NCBI RefSeq assembly: GCF_048403405.1
Contig: NZ_CP183129.1
Source of the DNA: Escherichia coli
GTDB taxonomy: Bacteria > Pseudomonadota > Gammaproteobacteria > Enterobacterales > Enterobacteriaceae
Direction: 5' to 3' (one strand)
Length of the DNA: 64,000 bases
Within the stretch, counting starts at the first letter, position 1; each line of letters starts with the position of its first letter. Both the position numbers and the translations under genes were made by a program. Below, one piece after another: positions 2,095 to 18,844 of the stretch. The notes beneath the pieces were generated by a model. That model saw only the letters and a list, made by a program, of their open reading frames with translations. It did no database searches and had not been told where the DNA came from.

Positions 2095-3990
<1,896 letters not shown>

Positions 3991-4019
3991 TAATCCTCCC
4001 GCCAGAAGAATAAAACATA

Positions 4020-4051
4020 GCCCGGTATACAAGTGTATACCGGGCTTTTTT
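4020..4051. terminator. Intrinsic terminator hairpin between convergent parE and the receptor gene
   Basis: GC-rich inverted repeat cccggtataca/tgtataccggg followed by a T6 run. Confidence 0.6.
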
Positions 4052-4053
4052 GA

Positions 4054-6195
4054 TCAAAATTCCATTTTCACCGTGAATTGCACTTCACGCGGATCGCCAA
4101 TCTGATTCCCCAGATTATTTGTGGCGATGGAAGAGGTGTAATACGTTTTATCAAACAGGTTTTTGACGTTTAATTGCAGTGTGACCGGATACTGCAATTT
4201 CATTTTGTATGCGGCGAAGGCATCGGCAACGAAATAGCCTGGCAGATAATAGTCAGCCCCATTGGTTGCCGAACGACGGCTTACGCCATGTCCACCACCG
4301 CCAAACGTCAGTGTGTTATTGCCTGGCATGTTATGAATGTCATAGGTCAGGAATAGCGAACCGGTATGACGAGGAACATTCGGCAATGGTTTCCCTGCAT
4401 AATCAGGATCTTCCAGAACCTTAGCATCGGTATAGCCGTAGCTGGCAATGATATTAATGTTTTCAGTTAATGCTCCCGCAAGGTCGACTTCTACCCCTCT
4501 TGAACGAACGCGGCCTGCCGTTTTGGCGATGGTTTCATCACCAATACTTTCGGTATACAACACGTTACGTTTATGGATATCAAACAGCGCAATATCTGCG
4601 GTGATACCATCGAACAGCTCGAATTTTGCCCCGACTTCGTAAGCATTAGATGATTCCGGTGGAAGATCTCCGATGTAGCTGGCAATTGACGATTGCGGCA
4701 TAAATGTTTGCGAATAATTAGCAAATAAGGATACCGATGGCGTCAGTTTGTAGACTAACCCCAGTTTGGGCGTCCATTGTTCATCGCGGCTGTCAGTATT
4801 GACATTAAAAGGACGGCCTTTACCCGCATACTGCGTGTAATACTGATAGCGGATCCCGGCGACGGCAATCCAGTTATCGGTCAGATAGAGCGCGTCCTGT
4901 GCATAAGCTGAGTAGCTCTCCTGTTTGATCGTCTGATCGCTGTCCGACGCCGAGACAGTTGTGCATTTGCTGGTATTGCCGTAAACAGGGTTGTAGATAT
5001 TGAAATCTTTAGCGTTTTTACAGCGAATCATATCTGTGCGCAGAAGATCATAATATTCATATGACACCCCACCCAGAATCTCATTATAGAACCCAGCAAT
5101 ATCAACATTCCCTTGCAGATCCGCACGAGTAGCATGCATACGCTGGGTAGATCCCTGAGTTGCATCAACACGCCGTGTCAGCGTTCCTGTCGTTGCATCA
5201 TACGCGGTAACACGAGCCTGATTATCGCCGTATTTATCCTGGCTGTAGCTGTAATCAAAGCGCGCTGTCCACTGGCTATTGAGATGATATTCTGCGTTGA
5301 GTTGCGCCAGATCGGACTGACCATCTGTAATATTAAACGGTTCGTCAAAACGTATTTTTCGATCAACGTTTACGGGCTGTTTCGTCGTAAGGTCGAAAAT
5401 CGTTCCACGATCGAACGGAGTTTTATAGTCCCGATGGGAATAGAGCATGGTTACTGTTGCATTATCACCAAACCAGGTGAGTGACGGGGCAATAAATGTA
5501 CTGCGCTCTTTACCGAAGTTTCGCCAGTAATCTTCATCCTGCACTTCCCCCGTCAGGCGGTATGCCAGCTGAGTGCCTTCAATGGGACCTGTGATATCAA
5601 GTTGCCCAGTGCCTCCGCCAAAACTGGAGGACGTGGCTGAGACAGAACCATGGAATGTTTTTTCCGGGCGCTTGGTCACGACGTTAATCAATCCACCAGG
5701 ATCGAGAATGCCATACAGCGTGGAGGCCGGACCTTTTAGCACTTCCACACGTTCTGTGGCGGCGTTGAAACTGCGAGGAAGTACAGTTCGCAGGCCGTTG
5801 GTCATGATGGAGCCATCCCGGTTAGCACCAAACCCACGACGTACAAAGGCGTCCTGAGTTCCGCCTAATGTATTGGTCTGTACCACGTTACTGACGTTAT
5901 AAAGCGCTTCATCCAGCGTCGTTGCATTCTGATTTTCCAGAACCTGATCGCTAACCGTATTGACCACCTGCGGGATATCCAGCATCGGCATATCGGTTAA
6001 TGTCGCCATGGAGGTGCTCAGAGGTTGATAACCATCGGTCGCCTCAGTTGCGGTATTTGCATCCGCTGTAACAGTGATTGTTTCGCCATCTTTGGTCGTT
6101 GCAGTGTCGGTTGCATGAATCATTGGTGCTGCAAAGAGCAGTGAAAAGAGCGCCCGACCTTTGATTCCTGAGAATGAAGGTGTGAACTTAGCCAT
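4054..6195 (-). CDS. TonB-dependent siderophore outer-membrane receptor
   Basis: 713 aa; signal peptide; TonB-box-like ETITVTA; plug and beta-barrel features; C-terminal aromatic residue (ends ...KMEF); not part of the K-12 parE-ygiN junction as I recall it. Confidence 0.9.
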   Translation of the reverse strand: MAKFTPSFSGIKGRALFSLLFAAPMIHATDTATTKDGETITVTADANTATEATDGYQPLSTSMATLTDMPMLDIPQVVNTVSDQVLENQNATTLDEALYNVSNVVQTNTLGGTQDAFVRRGFGANRDGSIMTNGLRTVLPRSFNAATERVEVLKGPASTLYGILDPGGLINVVTKRPEKTFHGSVSATSSSFGGGTGQLDITGPIEGTQLAYRLTGEVQDEDYWRNFGKERSTFIAPSLTWFGDNATVTMLYSHRDYKTPFDRGTIFDLTTKQPVNVDRKIRFDEPFNITDGQSDLAQLNAEYHLNSQWTARFDYSYSQDKYGDNQARVTAYDATTGTLTRRVDATQGSTQRMHATRADLQGNVDIAGFYNEILGGVSYEYYDLLRTDMIRCKNAKDFNIYNPVYGNTSKCTTVSASDSDQTIKQESYSAYAQDALYLTDNWIAVAGIRYQYYTQYAGKGRPFNVNTDSRDEQWTPKLGLVYKLTPSVSLFANYSQTFMPQSSIASYIGDLPPESSNAYEVGAKFELFDGITADIALFDIHKRNVLYTESIGDETIAKTAGRVRSRGVEVDLAGALTENINIIASYGYTDAKVLEDPDYAGKPLPNVPRHTGSLFLTYDIHNMPGNNTLTFGGGGHGVSRRSATNGADYYLPGYFVADAFAAYKMKLQYPVTLQLNVKNLFDKTYYTSSIATNNLGNQIGDPREVQFTVKMEF

Positions 6196-6295
6196 TTAGT
6201 CTGTTATCCCAAAAACTCACGGATTGTCGTGAGTGAAAATTGTTTCTTGTTGCTCACTAAGCACTATCCGTTTGTTATTTCACCATCGGATATGT

Positions 6296-6314
6296 AATTG
6301 AGAATCATTCAACC
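6296..6314. promoter_or_regulatory. Possible Fur box in the divergent receptor/ABC-transporter promoter region
   Basis: gtaattgagaatcattcaa matches about 12 of 19 positions of the Fur consensus GATAATGATAATCATTATC, with a conserved AATCATT core; weak on its own. Confidence 0.3.
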
Positions 6315-6568
6315 ATGCGGTGATGTAGTAGTAAATGAGAAATAACAAAAAATTGCTACATGTGTTTTTATGAGAGGTTAATGCAATTCAATTGATGGTA
6401 ATTTATTAATATTTAATGGTTTTATTTTTATCTTTAAAAATATTTCACCTGTTATTTACCTTGTTTTTGTATGGATTTTAACTTCTTGACTACTACATTT
6501 TGTGGCGTCAAACTCTCAAAGGAGAATGAGTTTTATTTTTGTTTGTCTTTGATTAAGTTGGCGTACAC

Positions 6569-7378
6569 GTGGCACATAACGCAAAAGGGCAGGGGCTGAT
6601 CCTCGACAATGTTTCTGCCGGGTATCACAAGAAAATCATTGTTGATGGTGTTTCTTTCTCCGTTCCCACAGAAAAAATGACCGTTCTGGTTGGGGCAAAC
6701 GGCTGTGGAAAGTCGACGTTGCTCAGCACCATTGCACGTATCTTGCAACCTATGGGCGGCTCGATATTGCTGGATGGTAAAGCGATTCACGAGCAACCAA
6801 CGAAAGCGTTATCCCGTAGACTTGGGATCTTGCCGCAGTCGCCATTATTGCCGGAGGGCTTAACCGTTTATGAACTGGTGTCGCGTGGGCGTTTTCCCTG
6901 GCAGAATTTCATTCGTCAATGGAGCGACGCCGACGAGCAGGCGGTAGAAGAGGCCCTGAAATTAACCGGTACGCAGGAGTTTGCACATTTACCTGTTGAA
7001 AAACTTTCTGGTGGGCAGCGCCAGCGTTGCTGGATTGCGATGGTGTTGGCGCAAAAGACGCCTTATATCCTGCTGGATGAACCCACAACCTGGCTTGATT
7101 TACGTTATCAGGTTGAAATTCTTGAGTTATTACATGATTTAACGCGTCATCACGGGCGTACAGTCGTCGTGGTGTTGCATGATCTGAATTTTGCCGTCAA
7201 TTATGGCGATACGTTGATATTTTTACGCCAGGGGAAAGTGGTGCGTGTGTTGAATGAGGGGGAGCATTGCACGCCTGAGCTGGTAAAAGCTGTCTTTGAC
7301 GTTGATGTTCACGCATCAATAAATCCTCTGACGGGAAAGCCGTTCTTCATGCCGTTTCGTGGTGTAGAAAAAGTATGA
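6569..7378 (+). CDS. ABC transporter ATP-binding protein (iron-siderophore importer type)
   Basis: Walker A GANGCGKST, signature LSGGQRQR, Walker B ILLDEPT; GTG start. Confidence 0.9.
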   Translation: MAHNAKGQGLILDNVSAGYHKKIIVDGVSFSVPTEKMTVLVGANGCGKSTLLSTIARILQPMGGSILLDGKAIHEQPTKALSRRLGILPQSPLLPEGLTVYELVSRGRFPWQNFIRQWSDADEQAVEEALKLTGTQEFAHLPVEKLSGGQRQRCWIAMVLAQKTPYILLDEPTTWLDLRYQVEILELLHDLTRHHGRTVVVVLHDLNFAVNYGDTLIFLRQGKVVRVLNEGEHCTPELVKAVFDVDVHASINPLTGKPFFMPFRGVEKV

Positions 7379-8358
7379 TGCGCACAGGGCTGGTTACTGT
7401 AATTTTCCTCGCCTTACTGCTGGTGGGATGCGTGGTATATCCAGGGATTGGTGCCCGATTTATTGCACCACAAACGGTGTTGCAGGCATTTCTTCATTTT
7501 GAACCGCAAAACTTCGATCACAACGTAATTGTAAGACTCCGTTTGCCGCGTTTAGCGGCAGCATTGCTTACCGGTGCTTCTCTTGGAGTTGCTGGTGCTT
7601 TGTTGCAGGCTGTCATTCGTAACCCATTGGGGGAGCCACATATTTTAGGCTTAAATGCCGGAGCCGCTCTTGCTGTCGTTGCTGCCACTGCGCTTGGGCT
7701 GGCCTTTCCGGTTGGACGCCCACTGCTGGCATCTACGGGCGGCGCGTTATTGTTCCTGTTGATATTGCTGCTTTCCTCCGCAGGGCGTTCAGGGTTAACG
7801 CCAATGAAAGTTACTTTATGCGGCGTGGCGCTATCGGCGTTCGTGTCCTCAATAACGGCTGCAATCCTGATTCTTGACGAACAAACACTGCTGGCGATGC
7901 GGACATGGCTAGCAGGTGATTTAGCGGGGCAGGATTGGGTGACGCTGGGTACGTCCGCCTGGTTTTCTCTGGGGGGGGTTGTGTTAGCCATTTACCTTGC
8001 GCCCTCTCTTAACATGTTGGCACTGGGTGATCGCATGGCGCAGGGGCTGGGCGTCTCGGTACTCCGCACGCGAACATTCACTCTGCTTGCGATCGCGTTG
8101 CTCTGTGGCGCAGCCGTATCGATTGCTGGCCCCATTGGTTTTGTCGGTCTGCTAGTACCGCAGATTGTCAGGCGTCTGGTATCAGCGGATCTGCGCGTTC
8201 TGCTCCCTCTTTCAGCTTGTGTCGGCGCGCTTTTGTTATTACTGGCAGATATTATTGCCCGGACGCTTTTCACGCCCCATGAGTTAGCGACCGGTGTCAT
8301 GACGGCGTTAGTTGGTGCGCCTGTTTTTGTCATTATGGCGACGAGGATGTTCAAATGA
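7375..8358 (+). CDS. ABC transporter permease, FecCD/BtuC family
   Basis: 327 aa polytopic membrane protein; 4-bp overlap with the upstream ATPase gene. Confidence 0.9.
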   Translation: MMRTGLVTVIFLALLLVGCVVYPGIGARFIAPQTVLQAFLHFEPQNFDHNVIVRLRLPRLAAALLTGASLGVAGALLQAVIRNPLGEPHILGLNAGAALAVVAATALGLAFPVGRPLLASTGGALLFLLILLLSSAGRSGLTPMKVTLCGVALSAFVSSITAAILILDEQTLLAMRTWLAGDLAGQDWVTLGTSAWFSLGGVVLAIYLAPSLNMLALGDRMAQGLGVSVLRTRTFTLLAIALLCGAAVSIAGPIGFVGLLVPQIVRRLVSADLRVLLPLSACVGALLLLLADIIARTLFTPHELATGVMTALVGAPVFVIMATRMFK

Positions 8359-9404
8359 GTCGGATAATGAACGTCGGGCTACGTCCACTACGTGTTGGTA
8401 AGTTTTCGACACTGGTACGCCCTAAAAATCTGGTGTTGCTTGGTGGGCTGTTTCTGTTTGCGGTTGGAATACTGATATTCGGTCTGATGCATGGTTCTTT
8501 TTCTGTCCCGGCATCGGAAGTAGGACGAGCGTTGTTTGCTCCAGAAAACGTAAGCACAGACGCACGTTATATTGTGCAGGATATTCGCTTGCCGAGAGTC
8601 ATCATGGCATTGCTATGCGGAGCCATGTTAGGTATGGCGGGGGCCGCGATGCAATCCATTGCGCGTAACGGCCTTGCCGATCCTGGTTTAATCGGCGTCA
8701 AAGAAGGATGTAGCGTGGCGGTGCTGTGGCTGATTTTCCAGTTTCCAATGCTGGGAATGTTCTGGCGTCCAGTGGCTGGTCTTGCTGGTGGCTTGTTGGT
8801 GGCTTTAATCGTGATTTTTTGTGCACGCGATATTTCCCGCCCGCGATTTGTTCTGATTGGTATTGGTGTTTCCTGGTTTTTCGCCGCCGGTATCGGTGTA
8901 TTTATGACCACTGCAGATGTTCGAGATGTACAAACTGCATTGATGTGGTTATCGGGAAGCCTGCATGCAGCTAACTGGATGTTAGTCGGTATTTCAGCCT
9001 GTTGGATGTTGCCAGCCGCTCTTTTATTGCTGTTCACCGCCAGGACGGCGGATATCGCTCTGCTTGGTCATCAGGTTGCAACCGGGTTAGGGGTGAATAG
9101 TTCTCGTCTGGCGTTGTTACGTGTCGCCGCACCAATAATCCTGACAGCCGTCTGCGTTTCGTGTGTTGGTAACATCGGTTTTGTCGGATTGATAGCACCC
9201 CATATATCACGTTTTATTCTACGTGGCGGGCAGACGACATTACTGCTGGGGAGCGCCGTATCGGGGGCGTTGTTAGTCATCCTGGCGGATAGCATTGGTC
9301 GTTTGGCTTTTTTGCCTTTGCAACTGCCTGCCGGAATCATTATTTCATTGATTGGTGGACCATTCTTTTTGCTACTGCTCTGGCAGCGCAGGAACAGTTT
9401 TTAA
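8355..9404 (+). CDS. ABC transporter permease, FecCD/BtuC family (second subunit)
   Basis: 349 aa polytopic membrane protein, paralogous to the preceding permease; 4-bp overlap. Confidence 0.9.
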   Translation: MSRIMNVGLRPLRVGKFSTLVRPKNLVLLGGLFLFAVGILIFGLMHGSFSVPASEVGRALFAPENVSTDARYIVQDIRLPRVIMALLCGAMLGMAGAAMQSIARNGLADPGLIGVKEGCSVAVLWLIFQFPMLGMFWRPVAGLAGGLLVALIVIFCARDISRPRFVLIGIGVSWFFAAGIGVFMTTADVRDVQTALMWLSGSLHAANWMLVGISACWMLPAALLLLFTARTADIALLGHQVATGLGVNSSRLALLRVAAPIILTAVCVSCVGNIGFVGLIAPHISRFILRGGQTTLLLGSAVSGALLVILADSIGRLAFLPLQLPAGIIISLIGGPFFLLLLWQRRNSF

Positions 9405-9414
9405 TGGGAGTTAT

Positions 9415-10362
9415 ATGCGTTTATTTTTTTCTCTGCTGATACTGTTGTCATTCTTTGCCCGCGCGACAGAACCTGTTCAGGTCTTTACTGATGATTTAGG
9501 GCGCAAAGTCACTGTTCCTGCTCATCCAAAGAGAATTGTCTCTTTACACGATCTTGATATCACTATTCCTCTGATTGAGCTCGGTGTACCTCCTGTCGCC
9601 AGCCACGGACGAACCCGGCCTGACGGTAGCCATTTCATTCGATCAGGCGCGTTATTGACAGGTGTCGACTTTGATAATTCATCGATCGCTTTTATTGGCA
9701 CCGCTGATATTGATATTGAAGCGATTGTGGCGGCAAAGCCTGACCTGATCATCACAGAACCGACCCGTAATACGCCCATTGAACAACTGGAAAAAATTGC
9801 GCCCACGGTGAGCATTGATCATCTCAAAGGAGGCGCGCCAGAAATCTACCGCAAGCTGGCAGAACTTACAGGAACGCAGTCGCAGCTGGCGATACTTGAA
9901 CGCCGCTATCAGGCACAAATCAATGCGCTGAAGGCGACGCTGGACAGCCAAAAAATAACGGTATCGGTGATTCAGGCAAATCAGGGAAAAATTAATGTGA
10001 TGCATAGCTATCATTCGCTGGGGCGGGTATTACGCGATGCTGGTTTTCGCTTTCCGCCGCTGATTGAGAGCATTCCTGAAGGTGGGCGAATGGATGTGAG
10101 CGCAGAGCGTTTACCTGAACTGGATGCCGATTTTGTTTTTGCAACCTGGCGCGGTGACACCGGTGGTAAACCTCAGGATGAGCTGGCAGCAATGGAAAAA
10201 GTCATGCCGGGATGGTGTCAGTTTCTGACGGCCTGTCGTTCCGGGCGCTATGTGCTGATTTCTCGTGAAGAGGCGATTTCTAACTCCTTTGCATCTCTGG
10301 GGCTGATGGCTGCGCAGATACAATCACAAATTGCGGGACGACCTCTACCGGAGGCTAAATGA
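9415..10362 (+). CDS. Periplasmic siderophore-binding protein of the ABC importer
   Basis: Start moved to the in-frame ATG at 9415, which has a GGGAG ribosome-binding site and begins a typical signal peptide (MRLFFSLLILLSFFARA); the tracked ORF begins upstream at 9352. Confidence 0.85.
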   Translation: MRLFFSLLILLSFFARATEPVQVFTDDLGRKVTVPAHPKRIVSLHDLDITIPLIELGVPPVASHGRTRPDGSHFIRSGALLTGVDFDNSSIAFIGTADIDIEAIVAAKPDLIITEPTRNTPIEQLEKIAPTVSIDHLKGGAPEIYRKLAELTGTQSQLAILERRYQAQINALKATLDSQKITVSVIQANQGKINVMHSYHSLGRVLRDAGFRFPPLIESIPEGGRMDVSAERLPELDADFVFATWRGDTGGKPQDELAAMEKVMPGWCQFLTACRSGRYVLISREEAISNSFASLGLMAAQIQSQIAGRPLPEAK

Positions 10363-11246
10363 TCCAGAAAGACAAAACGCGGGTTGATATTTATGGTGAG
10401 CGTTTTCGCACTCGCGCGAGTCAGTTAACGCCTGGGTTAAGAACTGTCGCAAGCTACATTAATGAGCATCGTGAAGTGGTACTCGAGCAAACGGCGATGG
10501 AAATTGCGGCCACGTTGAACACTTCCGATGCCACAGTTATCAGGGCTATACAGGCTCTGGGGTTTGCCGGGCTGCGTGATCTGAAACGCACACTGGAACA
10601 GTGGCTTGGTCCAGCCCTTAGTTCCAGCGAAAAGATGTCTACGACGGTGAGTAACTTGACGAGCGATGTTAACACCGCAATCGACTTTGTTCTTGAAGGG
10701 CATTTGTATACTTGTAATGTCCTGTCAGAGCCTGAAAACCGCCACGCGCTTGCGCAAGCTGTAGCGTTGTTGGTGCAGGCACGGCAAGTCGCTATTTTTG
10801 GCATTGGCGCTTCGGGTATCCTGGCGGACTATACCGCACGACTATTCAACCGCATAGGTTTGCCTGCCACGGCACTAAACCGTACGGGTATTGGCCTTGC
10901 CGAGCAACTGATCGCGCTTCAACGTGGCGATGTTCTGATCATGATGGCGCAAAAATCTGCGCACCGGGAAGGGCTGACAACGCTTCGTGAGGCGAGGCGG
11001 CTGGGGATCCCTGTTATTTTGCTGACAAACGCGCTGGATTCACGTTTTAGCAAAGACGCCAGTATCGTGATTCATGTTCCGCGCGGGGATGAAAGGGGGA
11101 AAACGCCACTACATGGTACGGTATTGTTGTGCCTGGAAATGATTGTTTGGTCGGTGGCTTCCGCGATGCCGCAGCGTGCGGTTAAAACCATTAAGCGAAT
11201 TAACGATTTCCATCGGGGTTTGAAAACGGGAAGAAAGAATGGCTAA
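10359..11246 (+). CDS. RpiR/MurR-family transcriptional regulator (helix-turn-helix plus SIS domain)
   Basis: 295 aa; N-terminal HTH and C-terminal sugar-isomerase-like domain pattern; start overlaps the binding-protein stop (ATGA). Confidence 0.8.
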   Translation: MIQKDKTRVDIYGERFRTRASQLTPGLRTVASYINEHREVVLEQTAMEIAATLNTSDATVIRAIQALGFAGLRDLKRTLEQWLGPALSSSEKMSTTVSNLTSDVNTAIDFVLEGHLYTCNVLSEPENRHALAQAVALLVQARQVAIFGIGASGILADYTARLFNRIGLPATALNRTGIGLAEQLIALQRGDVLIMMAQKSAHREGLTTLREARRLGIPVILLTNALDSRFSKDASIVIHVPRGDERGKTPLHGTVLLCLEMIVWSVASAMPQRAVKTIKRINDFHRGLKTGRKNG

Positions 11247-11254
11247 TCTGACCT

Positions 11255-11283
11255 GAGGCCGGTAGCAACACCGGCCTCTTTTC
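11255..11283. terminator. Bidirectional intrinsic terminator between the regulator gene and ygiN
   Basis: Stem gaggccgg/ccggcctc with an 8-nt loop, followed by TTTT. Confidence 0.6.
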
Positions 11284-11290
11284 AGGAATG

Positions 11291-11605
11291 TTAAATCCCC
11301 GGTTGCAGAATACGGATATTCATCTCCAGCACGTCGCCTTTTACGGCTTCGCTGTACGCCTTCATGTGCGGGGTTTGCAGATGCGCTTCAAGATGCGCGA
11401 TGCTTTCCCACTGCTCAATCATCACGATAGAATCCGGTGCCATAGACTGGAAACTCACGCCAGCAGCGCAATCCACCATTGGCGTATAGCCGTGGCAACC
11501 TTCTTCTTTCAGTACGGTTGGAACGATTTTAGCAAACTGATCCAATACTGCCTGACGGTGATGTTGACCAGGACGAGTACGGATTTCTGCGATTACGGTA
11601 AGCAT
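11291..11605 (-). CDS. ygiN: Quinol monooxygenase YgiN (ABM domain)
   Basis: 104 aa; adjacent to mdaB as in K-12. Confidence 0.92.
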   Translation of the reverse strand: MLTVIAEIRTRPGQHHRQAVLDQFAKIVPTVLKEEGCHGYTPMVDCAAGVSFQSMAPDSIVMIEQWESIAHLEAHLQTPHMKAYSEAVKGDVLEMNIRILQPGI

Positions 11606-11635
11606 GGTTAACTCCTTCTAAAGCCTGAGCTCTAG

Positions 11636-12217
11636 TTAACCAAAAATTTCCACAAGATGCTTGCGATATTCTTCAGTATAGCGGGGAACATCAGGCATTT
11701 TTATCACGTCATTAGCGATAAATGTCGGCAGCGGTTCCATGCCAAGGAATTGGTTTGCTTTATGGAACGGCAGATACACACCGTCAACGCCAACGCCGTG
11801 GAAGAACTGATCTTTTTCGGTGAAGGCTTCCATTGGTGCGTTCCAGGTCAGAGAAAGCATATATTTTTTGCCCTGTACCAGGCCGCCGGAACCGTATTTT
11901 TTCGACGGATCTTTGCGGGTACGACCATCGCTGGCATACAGCGTCCCGTGACCTTCGGTGAATACATCATCAATGTATTTTTTCACTGTCCACGGCGCGC
12001 CCATCCACCAGCCTGGCATCTGCCAGATCACCACATCAGCCCAGAGAAAGTTTTGTACTTCCGCTTTGACATCGTAGTCGCTGTCGGCGCGAACGATGCG
12101 GACATCATGCCCGAGGTCGCGCAACGTGCCATCCGCGACTTCGGTCAGGGTGTCGTTCAGTTGACCATTGGAGTGGGCGAATTTTTTCGCGCCGTTGATA
12201 ATCAGGATGTTGCTCAT
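11636..12217 (-). CDS. mdaB: NADPH:quinone oxidoreductase MdaB
   Basis: 193 aa; flavodoxin-like quinone reductase; synteny. Confidence 0.93.
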   Translation of the reverse strand: MSNILIINGAKKFAHSNGQLNDTLTEVADGTLRDLGHDVRIVRADSDYDVKAEVQNFLWADVVIWQMPGWWMGAPWTVKKYIDDVFTEGHGTLYASDGRTRKDPSKKYGSGGLVQGKKYMLSLTWNAPMEAFTEKDQFFHGVGVDGVYLPFHKANQFLGMEPLPTFIANDVIKMPDVPRYTEEYRKHLVEIFG

Positions 12218-12278
12218 TTTTTAACCTCAAGGTGAGACGTTTGTCGACTATAGTACGTCACAGAGCGGTACGGTGAAA

Positions 12279-12318
12279 TTAGCAAAATGTGCAAAGTCTT
12301 TTGCTAATTTAGCAAAAG
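12279..12318. promoter_or_regulatory. Candidate operator: perfect 10-1-10 palindrome plus a third half-site, upstream of mdaB
   Basis: cttttgctaa-t-ttagcaaaag at 12298-12318 is a perfect inverted repeat; a third copy, ttagcaaaat, lies at 12279-12288; located 60-100 bp upstream of the mdaB start codon. Confidence 0.4.
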
Positions 12319-12466
12319 TCTGATCTTGCTCTGATTCACCGATGCGGGATAAATATTTTCTGAAAATGACAATACTGAAATCAACTTCCTATAAGTTCCC
12401 ACAGGAGAGATGTATTATGTAAATGATAAAGTAGTTTTTCGGAAAAAATAATCATGGAGAATATAT

Positions 12467-12946
12467 ATGTCAAATATCATATACTTATCAATTAAAGGAA
12501 AAACACAAGGTTTGATCTCTGAGGGCTGTGGTTCGTATGCATCTATTGGTAATAAATATCAAATAAATCATGTGGATGAAATTTTTGTTTTACAGTTCGA
12601 CCATTCTTTAAGTCGAGAATATAATGTAGTGCATCATCCCATAAAATTTTACAAGCCAATAGATAAATCCTCTCCTTTATTAAATGCTGCTCTTTCTGAA
12701 AATGAAGAGTTATCAGCTGTATTTAATTTTTATAGAATTAATTCTGGCGGTTGTATTGAAAGGTTTTACACAATTGAATTGCAAGGGGCATATTTATCGA
12801 ATATTCTGACTTGTTATCCACACTCAATTACACATGCGGGTAATCAACCGGAAGAGGTCATTGTTCTTAATTATAAAAATATAACATGGAAGCACCATAT
12901 CGCGAGTACGGAATCATATAGCTGTTGGGAAGAAAGGATTTTTTAA
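12467..12946 (+). CDS. hcp: Type VI secretion Hcp-family protein (orphan hcp)
   Basis: 159 aa; Hcp-like blocks IYLSIKGKTQGLISEGC, HHPIKFYKPIDKSSPLL and NYKNITWKHH; GGAGA ribosome-binding site 6 nt upstream; AT-rich gene. Confidence 0.8.
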   Translation: MSNIIYLSIKGKTQGLISEGCGSYASIGNKYQINHVDEIFVLQFDHSLSREYNVVHHPIKFYKPIDKSSPLLNAALSENEELSAVFNFYRINSGGCIERFYTIELQGAYLSNILTCYPHSITHAGNQPEEVIVLNYKNITWKHHIASTESYSCWEERIF

Positions 12947-12948
12947 AT

Positions 12949-13659
12949 ATGAAAAGCGATCTCACTATAAAAAATAGATATTGTACAATTCCACAAACGA
13001 AGTTCCGTAAATGGGATGAAATGGACGTTTTACTCTGGAAGTTAGGAAAAAATGATTCGCGTCGCCGTTCAGGAGTATATTATTTAAATGCTTATAAAGA
13101 TGCATATGTACAATATAATAGGGACAAAATAATTAAACATGCATATGCCGCAGGGATTCGTCCAGAGTTATTGGGCGGCGTGGCCTGGATTGAGTCAGGA
13201 GGTATGCCTGAAAATTATAAGTTTCAGATATATGAAACAAAAAGAATGATCGGATCGTTAGATATGCCTGAAAATAAAACATCATTTGGCTCAATGGGTA
13301 TACAAATACGAACCGCAGCGATTACTCTAGGCCTTGACCCTTCAGAATTAACTACCAGAAATCAGTTAGAGTTAGCGACATGCCTGATGGAAGATGATTT
13401 TACCTTTAAAATTGCTGCTACTCATTTAAGAGATCTTGCCCTTTTTGATTATCCCTCTTCGGCAACACTGTATATGACGAATGAGCAGTATATTATGGCT
13501 GGTATTAGATATAATCGTGGTGTTGAACGAGATTTGGGTTTTTTTATTTATTTAATTAATAATTTGCCTGCGCGTGATACAGATGATTATAAATTCATCT
13601 CTTATGGTATGAGGTTGTTAGAGATTAGAGAACATATCAAAAAATTGATCAATGAGTAA
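12949..13659 (+). CDS. Hypothetical protein with lysozyme/lytic-transglycosylase-like motifs; candidate Hcp-associated cell-wall-targeting effector
   Basis: Start set at the ATG at 12949 (GAAAGGA ribosome-binding site) 2 nt after the hcp stop; motifs WIESGG, FGSMGIQI and IRYNRG resemble the soluble-lytic-transglycosylase E-S / GLMQ / AYNAG pattern; function is inferred. Confidence 0.5.
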   Translation: MKSDLTIKNRYCTIPQTKFRKWDEMDVLLWKLGKNDSRRRSGVYYLNAYKDAYVQYNRDKIIKHAYAAGIRPELLGGVAWIESGGMPENYKFQIYETKRMIGSLDMPENKTSFGSMGIQIRTAAITLGLDPSELTTRNQLELATCLMEDDFTFKIAATHLRDLALFDYPSSATLYMTNEQYIMAGIRYNRGVERDLGFFIYLINNLPARDTDDYKFISYGMRLLEIREHIKKLINE

Positions 13660-13665
13660 TCAGAG

Positions 13666-13995
13666 ATGTTAAAAAAACAACTACTATCAATATTTGAAGC
13701 ACTATTATACATAATGCTTACTTATTGGTTAATAGATGCTTTTTTTGCTTTCAATAAGTATGACTGGATGCTTGAGTCGGGAGACAATATTTGCAGTATA
13801 CCTTCCGTTTCAGGCGAAGATCGTATATTGCAAGCAATGATTGCAGCATTTTTTCTTCTGACGCCACTTATTATTCTTATCTTAAGAAAACTCTTTATGC
13901 GGGAAATGTTCGAGTTTTGGCTATATGTATTCACGCTCGTTATTTGTTTGGTTTGTGGTTGGTGGCTTTTTTGGGGACGGTTTATATTTTGCTAA
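13666..13995 (+). CDS. ygiZ: Small inner-membrane protein (about 3 transmembrane helices); K-12 YgiZ occupies this position; candidate immunity protein
   Basis: 109 aa with three hydrophobic segments; starts 7 nt after the preceding gene; K-12 has the about 110 aa membrane protein YgiZ between mdaB and qseC (recollection); the immunity role is inferred. Confidence 0.6.
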   Translation: MLKKQLLSIFEALLYIMLTYWLIDAFFAFNKYDWMLESGDNICSIPSVSGEDRILQAMIAAFFLLTPLIILILRKLFMREMFEFWLYVFTLVICLVCGWWLFWGRFIFC

Positions 13996-14005
13996 TAGTA
14001 AAATC

Positions 14006-14033
14006 TATGAGAGTCGTTTTAACGGCTCTCATA
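14006..14033. terminator. Hairpin between convergent ygiZ-like gene and qseC
   Basis: Inverted repeat tatgagag(tcg)/(cgg)ctctcata with a 6-nt loop; a U-tract follows only on the minus-strand transcript. Confidence 0.4.
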
Positions 14034-14043
14034 GACAGAGAAG

Positions 14044-15393
14044 TTACCAGCTCACCTTCGCCTCAAATCCACCTTGTTCCGCATTCCCAAACTCAACATT
14101 CATGCCATGCAATTTGGCGATTCGCTGGACAATCGATAGCCCAAGTCCACTGCCGGTAGCGGTTTGTCCGGGTGGGCGATAGAAGCGTTCGCCAATTCTC
14201 GCCAGTGCCTCTGGCGTCACACCGGGGCCGTTATCCCTCACGATGAAATTTTCGGCATTCAGCGTGACGTCCACCACGCTGCCCTGTGGACTGTAGCGCA
14301 CGGCGTTATCCAGAAGGTTTCGTACCAACAAACTTAGCAACAGCGGTTGTCCGGTGCGTTTGATGCCGTGGGCATTGAGTGTCAGTCGCACGTCAATTTT
14401 CGCCTGCTGCGCCGTGTGGTAAATATCCATCACCGATGATTGCAGGAGATCTTCAAGCGGGATCTCCGCGACGTCCTGAAGGTTATCCAGTGAGTCCAGC
14501 CGCGATAGCGTGAGCAGTTGATCAACCAGACGAGTAGCACGATCGATTCCGGAATGTAATTGAAGCAGCGCTTTTTTCCGCGCCTGCGGATCATCGTCAG
14601 AGAGCTGCGCAACTTCGGTTTGCACTTTCAGCGCCGTTAACGGGCTACGTAGTTCGTGAGCTGCGTCGGAGGTAAAACGTCGTTCACGAACCATCATCGC
14701 ATGTGTGCGGGCGAACAGTTGATTCAACGACTCAACCAGTGGACGCACTTCGCTGGGTACGCCCGTCGCGTTTAGTGGTTTTTCCGAGTCAGGGTCACGC
14801 ATACGTAGTGCCAGCGCCAGTTTGTTCAGCGGCGCGAGTTCACGACCCAGTAGTACCATCATGATGATTAACATAATCGGCAGTGCGACAAGCCACGGGA
14901 TCAATTGCCCGGCAACAATCGCCAGCGCCATGTCTTCGCGGTATTCCCATTCCTGACCAACAACGATGCGATATTTGCCATCAGGTGAGGTCATCCAGAC
15001 AAAACGCCAGGGATCGTCTTCACCGACCAGTTGCCCGTCAGCAAAACCTTCCCGTTGATAGCTATAGGGAATATCTTCTCCGTTATCGCCATCGTTAAGG
15101 ACCATTCTGCCGTCGTGGGTAAAGATGGCAAAGGTCAGCGCATCGTCATCAACATGACCGTGTTTTAATTTATTTGGCGTCTGTGCCATGCGATCTGCCG
15201 CGTTGATTTCGTTGAGATCGAGCGTACTTAACCGCTTGGCAAACAGCATCAGTTGGGTGTCGAACAACTCATCGACGTTATCCGTTGTTTGTTTCCAGGC
15301 GACAAAGCTGGAAAGCAGCCAGGTCACTGAGGCCAGAATTAAAAAGATTAGCGTCAGCCTGACTCGCAGACTAAGACGTTGGGTAAATTTCAT
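14044..15393 (-). CDS. qseC: Sensor histidine kinase QseC
   Basis: 449 aa; two transmembrane segments; H-box HELRSPL; ATPase domain; 4-bp overlap with qseB. Confidence 0.95.
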
Positions 15394-16049
15394 TTCTCAC
15401 CTAATGTGTAGCCAATACCATGAACGGTACGAATAAAATCACTGCCGAGTTTGCGTCGCAGATGATGCACATGCACTTCAACGGCATTACTGGTGACCTC
15501 TTCGTCCCAGGTATACAGTTTCTCTTCAATCAGTTTGCGCGGCAGTACCCGACCAGCGTTACGCATCAGTAATTCCAGCAGGGCAAATTCTTTTGGTTTC
15601 AGTGTTAAGGGTTCGCCAGCCAGCGTGGCGATACGTTTGCCGGGGTCGAGCATGACGTTACCGTGGCGCAGTTCGTTGCTGGCCTGGCCGTTGGTTCGGC
15701 GCATCAGAGCTTCCAGCCTGGCGGCGACTTCTATCAACGCAAAAGGTTTACACAGATAATCGTCAGCTCCCAGACGCAGCCCCTCTACACGTTCCGCTAA
15801 CGCATCGCGCGCGGTCAGGATCAGTACCGGCTCACGCTGACCTTTTTCTCGCCATTCGCGCAAAATATCGCGACCATCCATGCCTGGTAAGGTTAAATCC
15901 AGGATCACCGCATCATAAGGCGCACTATATAGCGCCTCTTTTCCCTGACGACCTTGTGTAAACCAGTCGACGCTAAAACCCATTTTACTAAGGCCCGTTT
16001 TGATGCCGTCGCCAATCAGCATGTCATCTTCTATCAGTAAAATTCGCAT
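15390..16049 (-). CDS. qseB: Response regulator QseB (OmpR family)
   Basis: 219 aa; receiver domain (DLTLPGMDG) and winged-helix C-terminus. Confidence 0.95.
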
Positions 16050-16200
16050 TTTTTCATCCCTGCGATAACCGTATTTGCTGCCAGTAAACCGTGTTGTAAC
16101 GCGCTCTGTACAGCATTAAATTTTATTTTTTTCCCTTAAGAAGTTGTTAAGGACTATCTTGTTAAATGCTCGGAAACAGACATTAAAGGGAGTAATAAAC

Positions 16201-16593
16201 ATGAAAAAATTCGCAGCAGTAATCGCAGTAATGGCCCTGTGCAGCGCACCGGTGATGGCAGCAGAGCAGGGCGGTTTTTCTGGCCCATCGGCAACGCAAA
16301 GTCAGGCCGGAGGATTCCAGGGGCCGAACGGCAGCGTAACGACCGTAGAAAGCGCAAAATCCCTGCGTGACGACACCTGGGTAACCCTGCGCGGCAATAT
16401 CGTTGAACGCATCTCTGACGATCTCTACGTGTTCAAAGATGCCAGCGGTACTATCAATGTTGATATCGACCACAAACGCTGGAACGGCGTGACGGTGACG
16501 CCGAAAGATACGGTTGAGATTCAGGGTGAAGTCGATAAAGACTGGAATTCTGTTGAAATTGACGTCAAACAGATCCGCAAAGTAAATCCGTAA
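16201..16593 (+). CDS. ygiW: Periplasmic OB-fold protein YgiW
   Basis: Start set at the ATG at 16201 with an AGGGAG ribosome-binding site, giving 130 aa with a signal peptide (MKKFAAVIAVMALCSAPVMA); the tracked ORF has an unsupported N-terminal extension. Confidence 0.9.
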   Translation: MKKFAAVIAVMALCSAPVMAAEQGGFSGPSATQSQAGGFQGPNGSVTTVESAKSLRDDTWVTLRGNIVERISDDLYVFKDASGTINVDIDHKRWNGVTVTPKDTVEIQGEVDKDWNSVEIDVKQIRKVNP

Positions 16594-16603
16594 TTGTTAC
16601 CGC

Positions 16604-16624
16604 TCCCGGGACGCATTCCCGGGA
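16604..16624 (+). terminator. Hairpin downstream of ygiW
   Basis: Palindromic stem tcccggga/tcccggga with a 5-nt loop; weak T tract. Confidence 0.4.
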
Positions 16625-16645
16625 ATAATTTCGCAGGGAGGCAAA

Positions 16646-17128
16646 ATGACAAACCTGACACTGGATGTAAATATTATCGATTTCCCATCAATCCCTGTGG
16701 CGATGTTGCCGCACCGCTGTAGCCCTGAGTTGCTCAACTACAGCGTGGCGAAATTTATCATGTGGCGTAAAGAGACGGGGCTTTCTCCTGTTAACCAAAG
16801 CCAGACTTTTGGCGTCGCCTGGGACGACCCTGCCACCACCGCACCGGAAGCGTTTCGCTTTGATATCTGCGGCAGCGTTAGCGAACCGATCCCCGATAAT
16901 CGTTATGGTGTGAGTAATGGTGAACTTACCGGTGGACGTTATGCTGTGGCCCGCCATGTTGGCGAGCTGGACGATATTTCACACACGATATGGGGCATCA
17001 TTCGCCACTGGCTACCTGCAAGCGGCGAGAAAATGCGTAAAGCACCGATTCTGTTTCACTACACCAATCTTGCCGAAGGAGTGACAGAGCAGCGACTGGA
17101 AACGGATGTTTATGTACCGTTAGCGTGA
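16646..17128 (+). CDS. ygiV: GyrI-like effector-binding domain protein YgiV
   Basis: 160 aa; synteny next to ygiW/qseBC. Confidence 0.88.
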   Translation: MTNLTLDVNIIDFPSIPVAMLPHRCSPELLNYSVAKFIMWRKETGLSPVNQSQTFGVAWDDPATTAPEAFRFDICGSVSEPIPDNRYGVSNGELTGGRYAVARHVGELDDISHTIWGIIRHWLPASGEKMRKAPILFHYTNLAEGVTEQRLETDVYVPLA

Positions 17129-17236
17129 TGGAGAATCTTTACCGGAGTGTGAGCCACATCACTCGCGATAAGTTTGAGCGAACAATGCCACAGGCGTATT
17201 GTTGTCGGGCTTATAATTTCTCCGGTAAGGAATACC

Positions 17237-18844
17237 ATGTATACGCGAAATTTATTATGGCTGGTCAGCCTGGTAAGTGCGGCTCCTCTCTACGCTGCTG
17301 ACGTTCCCGCCAACACACCGCTCGCCCCGCAACAAGTCTTTCGTTACAACAATCATAGCGACCCAGGTACGCTCGACCCGCAAAAGGTAGAGGAGAATAC
17401 TGCCGCGCAGATTGTGCTGGATCTGTTTGAAGGTCTGGTATGGATGGACGGTGAAGGCCAGGTGCAGCCCGCTCAGGCTGAACGCTGGGAGATACTGGAC
17501 GGCGGCAAGCGCTATATTTTCCATCTGCGTAGCGGTTTGCAGTGGTCAGACGGTCAGCCTCTGACGGCAGAGGATTTTGTCCTCGGCTGGCAGCGCGCGG
17601 TTGACCCGAAAACGGCAAGCCCTTTTGCTGGCTATCTGGCACAGGCGCACATTAACAATGCCGCGGCTATTGTTGCGGGTAAAGCAGATGTTACATCGCT
17701 GGGTGTCAAAGCGATGGATGATCGTACTCTTGAAGTTACGCTTGAGCAGCCGGTTCCTTGGTTCACGACGATGCTCGCCTGGCCGACGCTGTTCCCGGTT
17801 CCCCATCATGTCATCGCGAAATATGGCGATAGCTGGAGTAAGCCTGCGCATATGGTTTACAACGGTGCCTTTGTGCTTGAACAGTGGGTAGTTAACGAAA
17901 AGATTACTGCACGCAAAAATCCAAAGTACCGCGATGCGCAACATACAGTATTGCAACAGGTTGAGTATCTGGCGCTGGATAATTCGGTCACCGGCTATAA
18001 CCGCTATCGCGCGGGAGAGGTCGATCTCACCTGGGTTCCGGCGCAGCAAATTCCCACCATTGAAAAATCACTGCCTGGCGAGCTACGAATTATCCCGCGT
18101 CTGAACAGCGAATATTACAACTTTAACCTTGAGAAACCGCCATTTAACGATGTGCGGGTGCGTCGGGCGCTATATCTTACGGTTGATCGACAGCTTATTG
18201 CGCAAAAGGTACTGGGGTTGAGAACGCCCGCAACCACGCTGACGCCGCCAGAGGTAAAAGGCTTTAGCGCGACGACGTTCGATGAACTGCAAAAGCCAAT
18301 GAGTGAGCGTGTCGCGATGGCAAAAGCCTTGCTGAAACAGGCGGGATACGACGCCTCTCATCCGCTACGCTTTGAGCTGTTCTACAACAAGTACGATCTG
18401 CATGAAAAAACCGCGATAGCGTTGTCTTCCGAATGGAAAAAATGGCTGGGTGCACAGGTGACGCTGCGCACAATGGAGTGGAAAACTTATCTTGATGCCC
18501 GACGAGCCGGTGATTTCATGCTGTCGCGGCAGTCGTGGGATGCGACGTATAATGATGCTTCCAGCTTCCTGAACACGCTCAAAAGCGATAGTGAAGAAAA
18601 CGTCGGTCACTGGAAAAATGCGCAGTATGACGCCTTACTAAACCAGGCCACGCAGATCACTGATGCGACAAAGCGTAATGCGTTGTATCAGCAGGCAGAA
18701 GTGATCATCAACCAACAGGCACCGCTGATTCCTATCTACTATCAGCCGTTAATCAAACTGCTTAAACCCTACGTTGGCGGTTTTCCGCTGCATAATCCCC
18801 AGGATTATGTCTACAGCAAAGAGTTGTATATCAAGGCACATTGA
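17237..18844 (+). CDS. ygiS: Periplasmic solute-binding protein YgiS (family 5, oligopeptide-type)
   Basis: Start set at the internal ATG at 17237, giving 535 aa with a signal peptide (MYTRNLLWLVSLVSAAPLYA). Confidence 0.9.
   Translation: MYTRNLLWLVSLVSAAPLYAADVPANTPLAPQQVFRYNNHSDPGTLDPQKVEENTAAQIVLDLFEGLVWMDGEGQVQPAQAERWEILDGGKRYIFHLRSGLQWSDGQPLTAEDFVLGWQRAVDPKTASPFAGYLAQAHINNAAAIVAGKADVTSLGVKAMDDRTLEVTLEQPVPWFTTMLAWPTLFPVPHHVIAKYGDSWSKPAHMVYNGAFVLEQWVVNEKITARKNPKYRDAQHTVLQQVEYLALDNSVTGYNRYRAGEVDLTWVPAQQIPTIEKSLPGELRIIPRLNSEYYNFNLEKPPFNDVRVRRALYLTVDRQLIAQKVLGLRTPATTLTPPEVKGFSATTFDELQKPMSERVAMAKALLKQAGYDASHPLRFELFYNKYDLHEKTAIALSSEWKKWLGAQVTLRTMEWKTYLDARRAGDFMLSRQSWDATYNDASSFLNTLKSDSEENVGHWKNAQYDALLNQATQITDATKRNALYQQAEVIINQQAPLIPIYYQPLIKLLKPYVGGFPLHNPQDYVYSKELYIKAH

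Follow-up and report, generated by a model that had tools for sequence, protein, structure and literature searches.

A fit iron-transport locus of Escherichia coli was reportedly described by Ouyang and Isaacson in Infection and Immunity in 2006, together with tests of growth phenotypes. The regulation of fit, the primers used and the study of FitR were published by Ouyang and Isaacson (Open Microbiol J 2008; PMC2593036), with Fur and FitR as independent repressors of fit. Repression by Fur was 23-fold and dipyridyl induced expression (PMC2593036). FitR is an auto-repressor that bound the fitA-fitB spacer in EMSA, with lacZ data in addition, and its effects were small (2-5 fold; PMC2593036). 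In K. pneumoniae ST258, a gene annotated as fitA, which is probably the ortholog of E. coli fitA, was induced under iron limitation (PMC5907654).

Positions 4054-11246 of the window (the whole 64-kb stretch of DNA analysed here) are this published chromosomal fit locus (fitA, fitBCDE and fitR). Gene order, orientation, primer sites and the FitE structure all agree with the published E. coli system, and we found no difference of substance. The locus is already known, and it is ordinary apart from the question of which iron carrier it imports. We are confident of the reading as a whole, that is, a complete TonB-dependent, binding-protein-dependent ferric-chelate importer with the regulation, substrate and origin proposed below.

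Identification of the locus and its genes

All 18 published fit primers (PMC2593036) were placed in the expected genes and in the expected order, with 0-3 mismatches each. The fitA qPCR primers matched exactly at 5375-5451, as did the fitB and fitD primers in their genes, and the fitC primers showed 2 mismatches in each. The cloning and qPCR primers for fitR fell at both ends and inside of the ORF 10359-11246. The promoter primers were placed at 6217-6238 and 6552-6575 and here span 359 bp, compared with a quoted fragment length of 347 bp (PMC2593036). The allele of the window is 100% identical to that of strain U1 and 97.2-99.6% identical to alleles sampled from other fit-positive complete genomes. 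A first-pass annotation had noted a resemblance to Fit and a siderophore-type uptake function; the ordered primer placement and the match of FitE to PDB 3BE5/3BE6 confirm both, the locus being the Fit system.

The left flank is the core gene parE (2098-3990, plus strand; ORF and RefSeq annotation of U1 and EDL933). A scan for terminators on both strands detected a GC-rich hairpin at 4019-4046, which has 12 pairs (7 G-C) and a T-run on either side and probably terminates transcription of both parE and fitA; the ACCGGGCTTTTTT..TCA end at this hairpin also occurs at the Enterobacter and Huaxiibacter junctions. The minus strand encodes fitA (4054-6195, 713 aa). Across a control region of 373 bp (6196-6568, GC 0.31) follow, on the plus strand, fitB (6569-7378, 269 aa, GTG start), fitC (7375-8358, 327 aa), fitD (8355-9404, 349 aa), fitE (9415-10362, 315 aa including a signal peptide) and fitR (10359-11246, 295 aa).

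The receptor gene, the divergent ATPase gene, the two FecCD-type permease genes and the binding-protein gene were all found at the positions first noted. The sixth gene, fitR, had been overlooked; the plus-strand operon therefore comprises five genes (fitBCDER), and the end coordinate of the interval then given (11246) is the stop codon of fitR. The proposed 4-bp overlaps (ATGA) are present at fitB/fitC and fitE/fitR, whereas the one at fitC/fitD holds only with the ATG at 8355 as start codon (PGAP start of fitD: 8367), and fitD and fitE do not overlap but are separated by a 10-nt spacer with a GGGAG Shine-Dalgarno sequence. Downstream of fitR, the hairpin GAGGCCGG-N8-CCGGCCTC followed by TTTT (11255-11282), read directly from the sequence and kept in Escherichia sp. 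and E. whittamii, is probably a terminator facing the core gene ygiN on the right flank (11291-11605, minus strand; ORF and RefSeq annotation).

Transport proteins and substrate

The TonB-dependent outer-membrane receptor FitA has a signal peptide, a TonB-box-like ETITVTA and, in Pfam, only Plug and TonB_dep_Rec beta-barrel domains; an N-terminal signalling domain is absent from the Pfam matches. It passed the siderophore-receptor model TIGR01783 (371.9 bits; cut-off 223.5) and none of the substrate-specific equivalog receptor models. Among the best-scoring receptor models was FhuA (226 bits, far under the equivalog cut-off), while the BtuB model gave 45 bits (cut-off 599.7). FitA thus scores as a siderophore receptor and not as BtuB.

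FitB, FitC and FitD scored best with the FecE, FecC and FecD models respectively. The best NCBIfam matches of the ATPase FitB (FecE and FepC) both lie under cut-off, and its translation contains a Walker A motif (GANGCGKST), a signature motif (LSGGQRQR) and a Walker B motif (ILLDEP). FitC and FitD are FecCD-family permeases. FitE is a periplasmic binding protein of the Peripla_BP_2 type (PF01497) that matched PDB 3BE5/3BE6 with E 2.2e-195 over residues 19-315; 3BE6 is named Ec-FitE in PMC10553834. In the transport route that we propose, FitA would move the iron complex over the outer membrane with TonB energy, FitE would carry it in the periplasm, and FitC and FitD would deliver it to the cytoplasm, powered by the FitB ATPase.

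The substrate had been called unknown at first pass, which is still the published position, and enterobactin has been ruled out by published work (PMC5907654). Annotation of three flanks detected no siderophore biosynthesis genes nearby. In distant fit-like clusters, a PepSY_TM reductase is encoded in addition, as are two PstS-like binding proteins. Our best guess is that the carrier is a xenosiderophore of other organisms, non-catecholate and chemically beyond the range of FhuD and FepB.

FitR and conserved elements of the fitA-fitB spacer

FitR is a member of the RpiR/MurR family and carries an HTH_6 and a SIS domain (Pfam, NCBIfam). Comparison of 70 distinct orthologs revealed an invariant helix (TSDATV.R..QALGF) and an invariant SIS loop (FGIGAS), with the SIS domain as the most conserved portion of the protein.

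Footprinting of the spacer between fitA and fitB in about 65 loci, including roughly 58 from Enterobacterales, showed four conserved blocks in otherwise diverged sequence. This dissection into two Fur-box blocks and an inverted pair of 12-mers appears to be new here. In 6196-6568, where a Fur box search had been suggested at first pass, two of the conserved blocks are the predicted Fur sites, which match the Fur consensus at just 12-13 of 19 positions, a level that is reached or exceeded commonly across the 64-kb window. Putative box F1 (TGTAATTGAGAATCATTCAA; 6293-6312, minus strand; 12/19) overlaps the -10-like TTGAAT of the predicted fitA promoter and was found with no more than 3 mismatches in all Enterobacterales spacers except two, in most of them exactly. 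Putative box F2 (GAGAATGAGTTTTATTTTT; 6522-6540, plus strand; 12-13/19) lies directly downstream of the -10-like CAAACT (6509-6514) and was found within the same limit in all Enterobacterales spacers except three. Neither box was found in the alpha-proteobacterial spacers scanned. A promoter scan of the spacer detected no consensus sigma-70 promoter, and the -35 and -10 elements named here are predicted from conservation alone.

The invariant 12-mers (TGTAGTAGTMAA) form an inverted pair, each overlapping a -35-like hexamer, and were found independently in the repeat analysis as inverted repeat I4. Copy A (TGTAGTAGTAAA; 6324-6335, plus strand) has a reverse complement, TTTACTACTACA, that includes the -35-like TTTACT for fitA. 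Copy B (TTGACTACTACA; 6486-6497, plus strand) consists of the -35-like TTGACT of the predicted fitBCDER promoter followed by ACTACA. The pair is exact in all of the Enterobacterales spacers (about 58), and copy A was detected with 0-2 mismatches in five of the six alpha-proteobacterial spacers scanned, the exception being Azorhizobium (L065); the 12-mers are thus kept in alpha-proteobacterial loci without Fur boxes. Exact matches in the 64-kb window numbered 2 (0.14 expected), and the 12-mer is nearly missing elsewhere in 1.35 Mb of loci. In Neorhizobium, a separate copy lies about 55 bp upstream of a second FitA-like receptor. We infer that the TGTAGTAGT motifs at these two positions are the FitR operator, overlapping the -35 regions. 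The spacing between them varies from 162 to 262 bp and their helical phase is not constant, so a looping model is unproven.

Taken together with the published regulation, the 373-bp spacer would hold two back-to-back promoters, both closed by Fur-Fe2+ and FitR. FitR might be freed by a small ligand on its SIS domain, in which case expression would need iron shortage and inducer together.

Alternative explanations and origin of the locus

The 12-mers might instead serve as promoter elements or be bound by a different factor, and FitR would then bind at another place in the spacer. The published FitR work contains no footprint (PMC2593036), and the hexamer (TTGACT or TTTACT) inside each 12-mer means that promoter function could explain part of the conservation. 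However, ACTACA, the six bases past the hexamer, is invariant from Escherichia to Xanthobacter where the other spacer sequence is unalignable. FitR is moreover the sole regulator that accompanies the cluster in all taxa, and its recognition-helix region is invariant. The TGTA core of the 12-mer presumably resembles the half-sites of HexR, another RpiR-family protein. These points make the promoter-element explanation unlikely, and we favour the FitR operator. Much less probable still is that the cargo of fit is not iron but, for example, a different metal-chelate or a cofactor such as a corrinoid. In favour of this, the literature names no substrate, the FecCD and BtuC permeases form one superfamily together with the binding proteins that serve them, BtuC models give 155-196 bits on FitC and FitD, and a regulator of the sugar-phosphate-sensing type is unusual among iron systems. 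Against this stand the Fur repression and dipyridyl induction described above, the iron-limited induction of the K. pneumoniae gene, the receptor scores of FitA, the Fur-box blocks conserved throughout Enterobacterales and the PepSY_TM reductases within extended clusters, all of which argue for a ferric chelate.

Concerning origin, parE and ygiN are indeed neighbours in K-12, as had been noted at first pass: 47 bp separate them in a K-12 derivative. That fit is an island inserted between them is doubtful. Recent acquisition by pathogenic lineages, as a genomic or pathogenicity island, would agree with the presence of fit in just 1870 of 5426 complete E. coli genomes, with its absence from K-12, and with literature that ties fitA to pathogenic, AIEC and B2 strains. 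The module also occurs at other chromosomal sites in Klebsiella, Kosakonia, Citrobacter and Kluyvera and has close relatives in alpha-proteobacteria (FitE 64-72% identity), and has therefore moved over long time scales. However, the junctions contain no integrase, IS element, tRNA or direct repeat, the GC content is native (0.493 for fit, 0.509 for the window), and fit is all-or-none, with no partial copies among the 5426 genomes. The parE-ygiN site is likewise occupied in Enterobacter, Lelliottia, Huaxiibacter, Silvania, E. whittamii and a cryptic-clade Escherichia. Divergence of the fit genes follows that of parE, ygiN and mdaB: identities to ST131 were 97.0% for parE, 96.8-98.9% for fit genes and 95.8% for ygiN, and those to the cryptic clade 93.0%, 91.7-96.9% and 95.5% respectively. 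Divergence in step with the flanks agrees with an old resident that K-12-like lineages have lost, and recent acquisition seems improbable. The direction of the indel is a matter of interpretation, with loss from K-12-like lineages at least as likely as insertion, and fit would accordingly be an old parE-ygiN resident.

Comparison with known uptake systems

The ferric-hydroxamate system Fhu of E. coli K-12 (FhuA/FhuE and FhuCDB) shares with Fit a TonB-dependent receptor, a class III binding protein, a FecCD-type ABC importer and Fur control. FitA nevertheless scores far under the equivalog cut-offs of FhuA, FhuE and FoxA, and FitE is related to FhuD with just E 1e-13. The Fhu permease is the fused FhuB, whereas Fit has two separate permease proteins and, unlike Fhu, its own repressor FitR.

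PiuB/FoxB-type PepSY_TM reductases are encoded directly after fitE in the fit-like clusters of Affinibrenneria, Acerihabitans, Rhizobium and Neorhizobium, and the PepSY_TM protein of Rhizobium is a fusion with flavodoxin and FNR domains. Such a gene is absent from the E. coli fit locus, and iron release must therefore rely on unlinked functions.

The ferric-citrate system Fec (FecABCDE and FecIR) resembles Fit in having a substrate-specific regulatory layer above Fur. Its induction proceeds by surface signalling via the N-terminal domain of the receptor and an ECF sigma factor, whereas FitA has no signalling domain and the Fit regulator is a cytoplasmic RpiR-type repressor. In FoxA-FoxR of Salmonella, FoxR acts as an activator that binds the siderophore. 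FoxA and other regulator-controlled xenosiderophore receptors share with Fit a dedicated cytoplasmic regulator that is encoded nearby and acts on top of Fur control. FoxR, which regulates the uptake of ferrioxamine, is AraC-like (PMC9804782), in contrast to the RpiR/SIS repressor FitR; Fit differs further from FoxA-FoxR in having its own ABC importer.

The locus at 4054-11246 is the fit system

Six ORFs were found within 4054-11246: fitA (4054-6195, minus strand, 713 aa), which encodes a TonB-dependent receptor, and, divergent from it on the plus strand, fitB (6569-7378, 269 aa; ABC ATPase), fitC (7375-8358, 327 aa) and fitD (8355-9404, 349 aa), both for FecCD permeases, fitE (9415-10362, 315 aa; periplasmic binding protein) and fitR (10359-11246, 295 aa; RpiR/MurR regulator). 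The ORF list and domain searches showed that order and domains agree with the gene list of Ouyang and Isaacson (PMC2593036). The locus is flanked on the left by parE (2098-3990) and on the right by ygiN (11291-11605, minus strand).

Published primers cover the promoter and each of fitA, B, C, D, E and R (PMC2593036). Mapping placed 18/18 of these fit primers in the window in the expected gene, order and orientation, with 0-3 mismatches, and the fitR cloning primers delimited the ORF 10359-11246 exactly. The binding protein matched PDB 3BE5/3BE6 over residues 19-315 (E 2.2e-195), 3BE6 being E. coli FitE (PMC10553834). Primer sites, structure match and gene order therefore identify the locus as the already published fit system, as the first-pass annotation had guessed. 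The window is 100% identical to the corresponding sequence of E. coli strain U1.

The receptor divergent from a four-gene importer described in that annotation is present, but the fifth plus-strand gene, fitR, an ORF with HTH_6 and SIS domains, had been missed, because four plus-strand genes were listed even though the interval ended at the stop of a fifth. The 4-bp gene overlaps described there exist as ATGA at fitB/fitC and fitE/fitR; the one at fitC/fitD depends on the start codon chosen, and fitD and fitE do not overlap.

FitA-E have been presented as a typical iron transporter (PMC2593036), and a 2022 paper, which found no functional data, used fitA as a marker of adherent-invasive strains, mostly B2. 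Fit belongs to the accessory iron systems that are taken as markers of extraintestinal and adherent-invasive E. coli.

Outside the locus, a low-GC islet (GC ~0.32) was observed between mdaB and qseC (12467-13995). Three genes make it up: one for an orphan Hcp-family type VI secretion protein (12467-12946), one for a 236-aa hypothetical protein (12949-13659), and ygiZ/DUF2645 (13666-13995). The same arrangement occurs in ST131; none of the islet is present in EDL933, and ygiZ alone in K-12.

Distribution and origin of the locus

Among 5426 complete E. coli genomes, 1870 carried the whole 7.2-kb locus (97.2-100% identity) and none a partial copy; O157:H7, ST131 and O127:H6 are among the carriers. 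A FitE scan with one genome per species revealed 74 loci. The arrangement with fitA divergent from fitBCDE and fitR is shared by Escherichia, Enterobacter, Lelliottia, Huaxiibacter, Silvania, Kosakonia, Phytobacter, Citrobacter, Klebsiella, Raoultella, Kluyvera, Affinibrenneria and Acerihabitans, and also by the alpha-proteobacteria Rhizobium, Neorhizobium, Azorhizobium and Xanthobacter (FitE 64-73%, FitR 50-53% identical). Fit occupies the parE-ygiN site in Enterobacter, Lelliottia, Huaxiibacter, Silvania, E. whittamii and cryptic-clade Escherichia, and lies elsewhere in the other genera. As stated in the first-pass annotation, parE and ygiN are adjacent in K-12, with 47 bp between them in the K-12 derivative NEB10-beta.

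The same annotation had read the locus as inserted at this site, which probably did not happen. Neither an integrase nor IS elements, nor a tRNA or direct-repeat boundary, were found at the junctions or in the flanks, the junctions carry GC-rich terminator hairpins only, and the GC content of the fit locus (0.493) is near that of the window (0.509). Nucleotide identities showed that the divergence of the fit genes follows that of the flanking core genes, with 97.0% for parE, 96.8-98.9% for the fit genes and 95.8% for ygiN in the comparison with ST131, and 93.0%, 91.7-96.9% and 95.5%, respectively, with cryptic-clade Escherichia. The marks of a horizontally acquired island that were looked for (mobility genes, tRNA or repeat boundary, deviant composition and discordance with the flanks) were thus not found, and the occupation of the parE-ygiN site in other genera also speaks against one. 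A comparison of the junctions for insertion versus deletion revealed GC-rich hairpins in all states and short similarities that discriminate poorly between the two. Since divergence that tracks the flanks is what long co-residence predicts, we favour, rather than a recent insertion, an old resident that K-12-like lineages have lost; K-12 would thus probably have lost fit, rather than pathogens having gained it.

In many Enterobacter-clade genomes about 6 kb of extra sequence lies between fitR and ygiN (e.g. 11910-17264 in locus L006). In E. soli it encodes an AraC-type regulator, an oligosaccharide MFS transporter and two further proteins, one of 629 aa without family match and one unknown of 395 aa, and it resembles an unrelated sugar-use module. 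Palindromic CCCTCTCCC...GGGAGAGGG repeat units were seen at the parE-fitA and fitR-ygiN junctions of Enterobacter loci (L005, L010, L013, L019, L055 and others) and are absent from Escherichia junctions.

FitR and the fitA-fitB control region

Pfam searches detected an HTH_6 domain at residues 14-81 of FitR (E 3.6e-10) and a SIS domain at residues 138-246 (E 2.4e-13), and this combination of an N-terminal HTH_6 and a C-terminal SIS domain places FitR among the RpiR/MurR regulators; no specific NCBIfam equivalog cut-off was reached. Across 70 distinct orthologs the SIS domain is the best-conserved region of FitR, and both the FGIGAS loop (residues 147-152) and the helix TSDATV.R..QALGF are invariant. 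Phosphosugars are typical ligands of SIS domains, and a phosphosugar or sugar acid bound there would be the effector expected of an RpiR/MurR regulator. The conservation of the SIS domain and its invariant FGIGAS loop argue for a real small-molecule effector of FitR. FitR was the sole regulator to accompany the cluster everywhere in the fit-like loci compared, and the sequence evidence points to FitR with its SIS domain as a conserved, integral component of the fit module.

Repression by Fur-iron and FitR has been published for strain i484; repression by FitR amounts to 2-5 fold at both divergent promoters, FitR binds spacer DNA in EMSA, and the authors stated that they did not know exactly where Fur and FitR bind (PMC2593036). 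As the best Fur-consensus matches in the spacer (6196-6568) were no better than many others in the window, phylogenetic footprinting replaced a scan by consensus only. Fourteen spacers from different genera aligned poorly outside four conserved blocks: a Fur-like block at 6293-6312 (TGTAATTGAGAATCATTCAA), two 12-mers at 6324-6335 (TGTAGTAGTAAA) and 6486-6497 (TTGACTACTACA), and a second Fur-like block at 6522-6540 (GAGAATGAGTTTTATTTTT). The two Fur-like blocks match the Fur consensus at 12-13 of 19 positions, a score reached by many sites in the window; this match is weak alone, and it is their conservation that singles them out as candidate Fur sites.

The two 12-mers are inverted copies of TGTAGTAGTMAA and were independently recovered as inverted repeat I4. 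About 58 Enterobacterales spacers carry both without a mismatch. Alpha-proteobacterial spacers have the 12-mers with 0-2 mismatches (only one copy in Azorhizobium) and no Fur-like blocks. Exact matches in the window are restricted to the two spacer copies (0.14 expected), and beyond the spacer pairs 1.35 Mb of fit-like loci yielded three one-mismatch matches and one exact extra copy. We infer that TGTAGTAGT, invariant from Escherichia to Xanthobacter, is a candidate FitR operator. Inside each 12-mer lies a -35-like hexamer (TTGACT for fitB, TTTACT for fitA), then ACTACA; -10-like hexamers follow 17 bp downstream (CAAACT for fitB, TTGAAT for fitA), and each -10-like hexamer is overlapped or immediately followed by its Fur-like block. 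FitR bound there would occlude the -35 element and the spacer of both promoters. A consensus promoter scan gave no match in the fitA-fitB spacer, and Rfam no RNA family within 3500-14500.

The TGTAGTAGT copies are 162/163 bp apart in Escherichia and Enterobacter, 175 bp in Klebsiella and Raoultella, 184/185 bp in Kosakonia, Citrobacter and Kluyvera, 190 bp in Rhizobium and 252-262 bp in Xanthobacter. Within the Enterobacterales the classes differ by steps of 10-12 bp, which hints at helical phasing. A constant helical phase between the two 12-mers was considered and rejected, as the spacing classes across all taxa show none.

Several further sites were observed. The best Fur-consensus match in the window (14860-14878, 15/19, GATTATGTTAATCATCATG) lies, by coordinate mapping to U1, inside qseC and is for this reason probably a chance match. 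The Neorhizobium locus (L064, 2115-4122 and 4305-4332) has a second FitA-like receptor gene with an exact ATGTAGTAGTCAA of its own, the extra copy mentioned above, about 55 bp upstream, and a CTACTACAT...ATGTAGTCG dyad nearby. In Shimwellia pseudoproteus (L061) fitBCDE-fitR are 56-72% identical and each 12-mer has one mismatch; the receptor encoded divergently shares just 36% identity with FitA and has apparently been swapped.

Receptor and importer

FitA scored 371.9 bits against the TIGR01783 siderophore-receptor subfamily model (cut-off 223.5, model positions 1-649). Its Pfam domains are Plug and barrel only, and its translation has a TonB-box-like ETITVTA after the signal peptide. As Pfam detected no N-terminal signalling domain in FitA, any sensing of the substrate would be cytoplasmic, via FitR. 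FitA remained below every NCBIfam substrate-specific equivalog cut-off tested (FhuA, FoxA, FhuE, Fiu, FepA/CirA, FecA, BtuB), with bits/cut-off of 226/803 for FhuA, 166/1300 for FoxA, 163/666 for FhuE, 152/686 for Fiu, 103/1100 for FecA and 45/600 for BtuB. The closest solved receptors reached only E 1e-49, with FoxA, FetA and FhuA at about equal distance; FitE is far from YfiY and FhuD, and catecholate binders are farther still. A substrate assignment from the nearest characterised homologs of FitA and FitE was therefore rejected, all being distant and none assignable. FitB-FitE comprise two FecCD permeases, an ATPase with Walker and signature motifs and a Peripla_BP_2 protein, as in FecCD/BtuCD-type (type II) importers. 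From the established behaviour of these protein families, the substrate would pass from the receptor to the binding protein and on to the FecCD permease pair with its ATPase.

Accessory genes in related loci and the substrate

Accessory genes after fitE were found in the loci of Affinibrenneria (L059, 10898-14018), Acerihabitans (L062, 10885-12033), Rhizobium (L063, 10804-15469), Neorhizobium (L064, ~11047-15436) and Azorhizobium (L065, 10950-12901). The Affinibrenneria, Rhizobium, Neorhizobium and Azorhizobium clusters encode two paralogous PstS-like periplasmic binding proteins, with 4OMB and 4PQJ as closest solved structures (E 1e-33).

A 2018 paper reported that enterobactin is not the fit substrate, called the substrate unknown, and found that iron limitation induces a K. 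pneumoniae ST258 gene annotated as fitA (PMC5907654); no later identification of the substrate was found in the literature. NRPS/NIS synthetase genes were absent from the E. coli flanks and from the three non-E. coli flanks that were annotated, those of Enterobacter soli, K. pneumoniae and Rhizobium sp.

E. coli has broad importers for hydroxamates (FhuBCD) and catecholates (FepBCDG). As a dedicated importer is nevertheless kept, our guess is that the fit substrate is a chemically different, non-catecholate xenosiderophore. The dedicated ABC importer beside these broad systems would also suit another reading, in which Fit imports iron on a phosphorylated or sugar-derived chelator, e.g. a plant- or diet-derived one, rather than by classical siderophore piracy, and the SIS domain of FitR senses the ligand or its phosphorylated product. 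The sugar-phosphate-type regulator, the PstS-like pair, of phosphate-binding type, in the extended clusters of plant-associated gamma- and alpha-proteobacteria and the lack of visible biosynthesis genes near the annotated loci hint at this reading, which we nonetheless consider improbable. The questions of the substrate and of the FitR signal are genuine ones of the ordinary orphan-transporter kind, with modest relevance to siderophore-drug conjugates and to how bacteria compete for iron in the gut and the urinary tract.

A PepSY_TM gene follows fitE in Affinibrenneria, Acerihabitans, Rhizobium and Neorhizobium. It is the only accessory gene in Acerihabitans, and the PstS-like pair is the only addition in Azorhizobium. 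The Rhizobium PepSY_TM protein carries fused flavodoxin and FNR domains, in the manner of PiuB and FoxB-type reductases.
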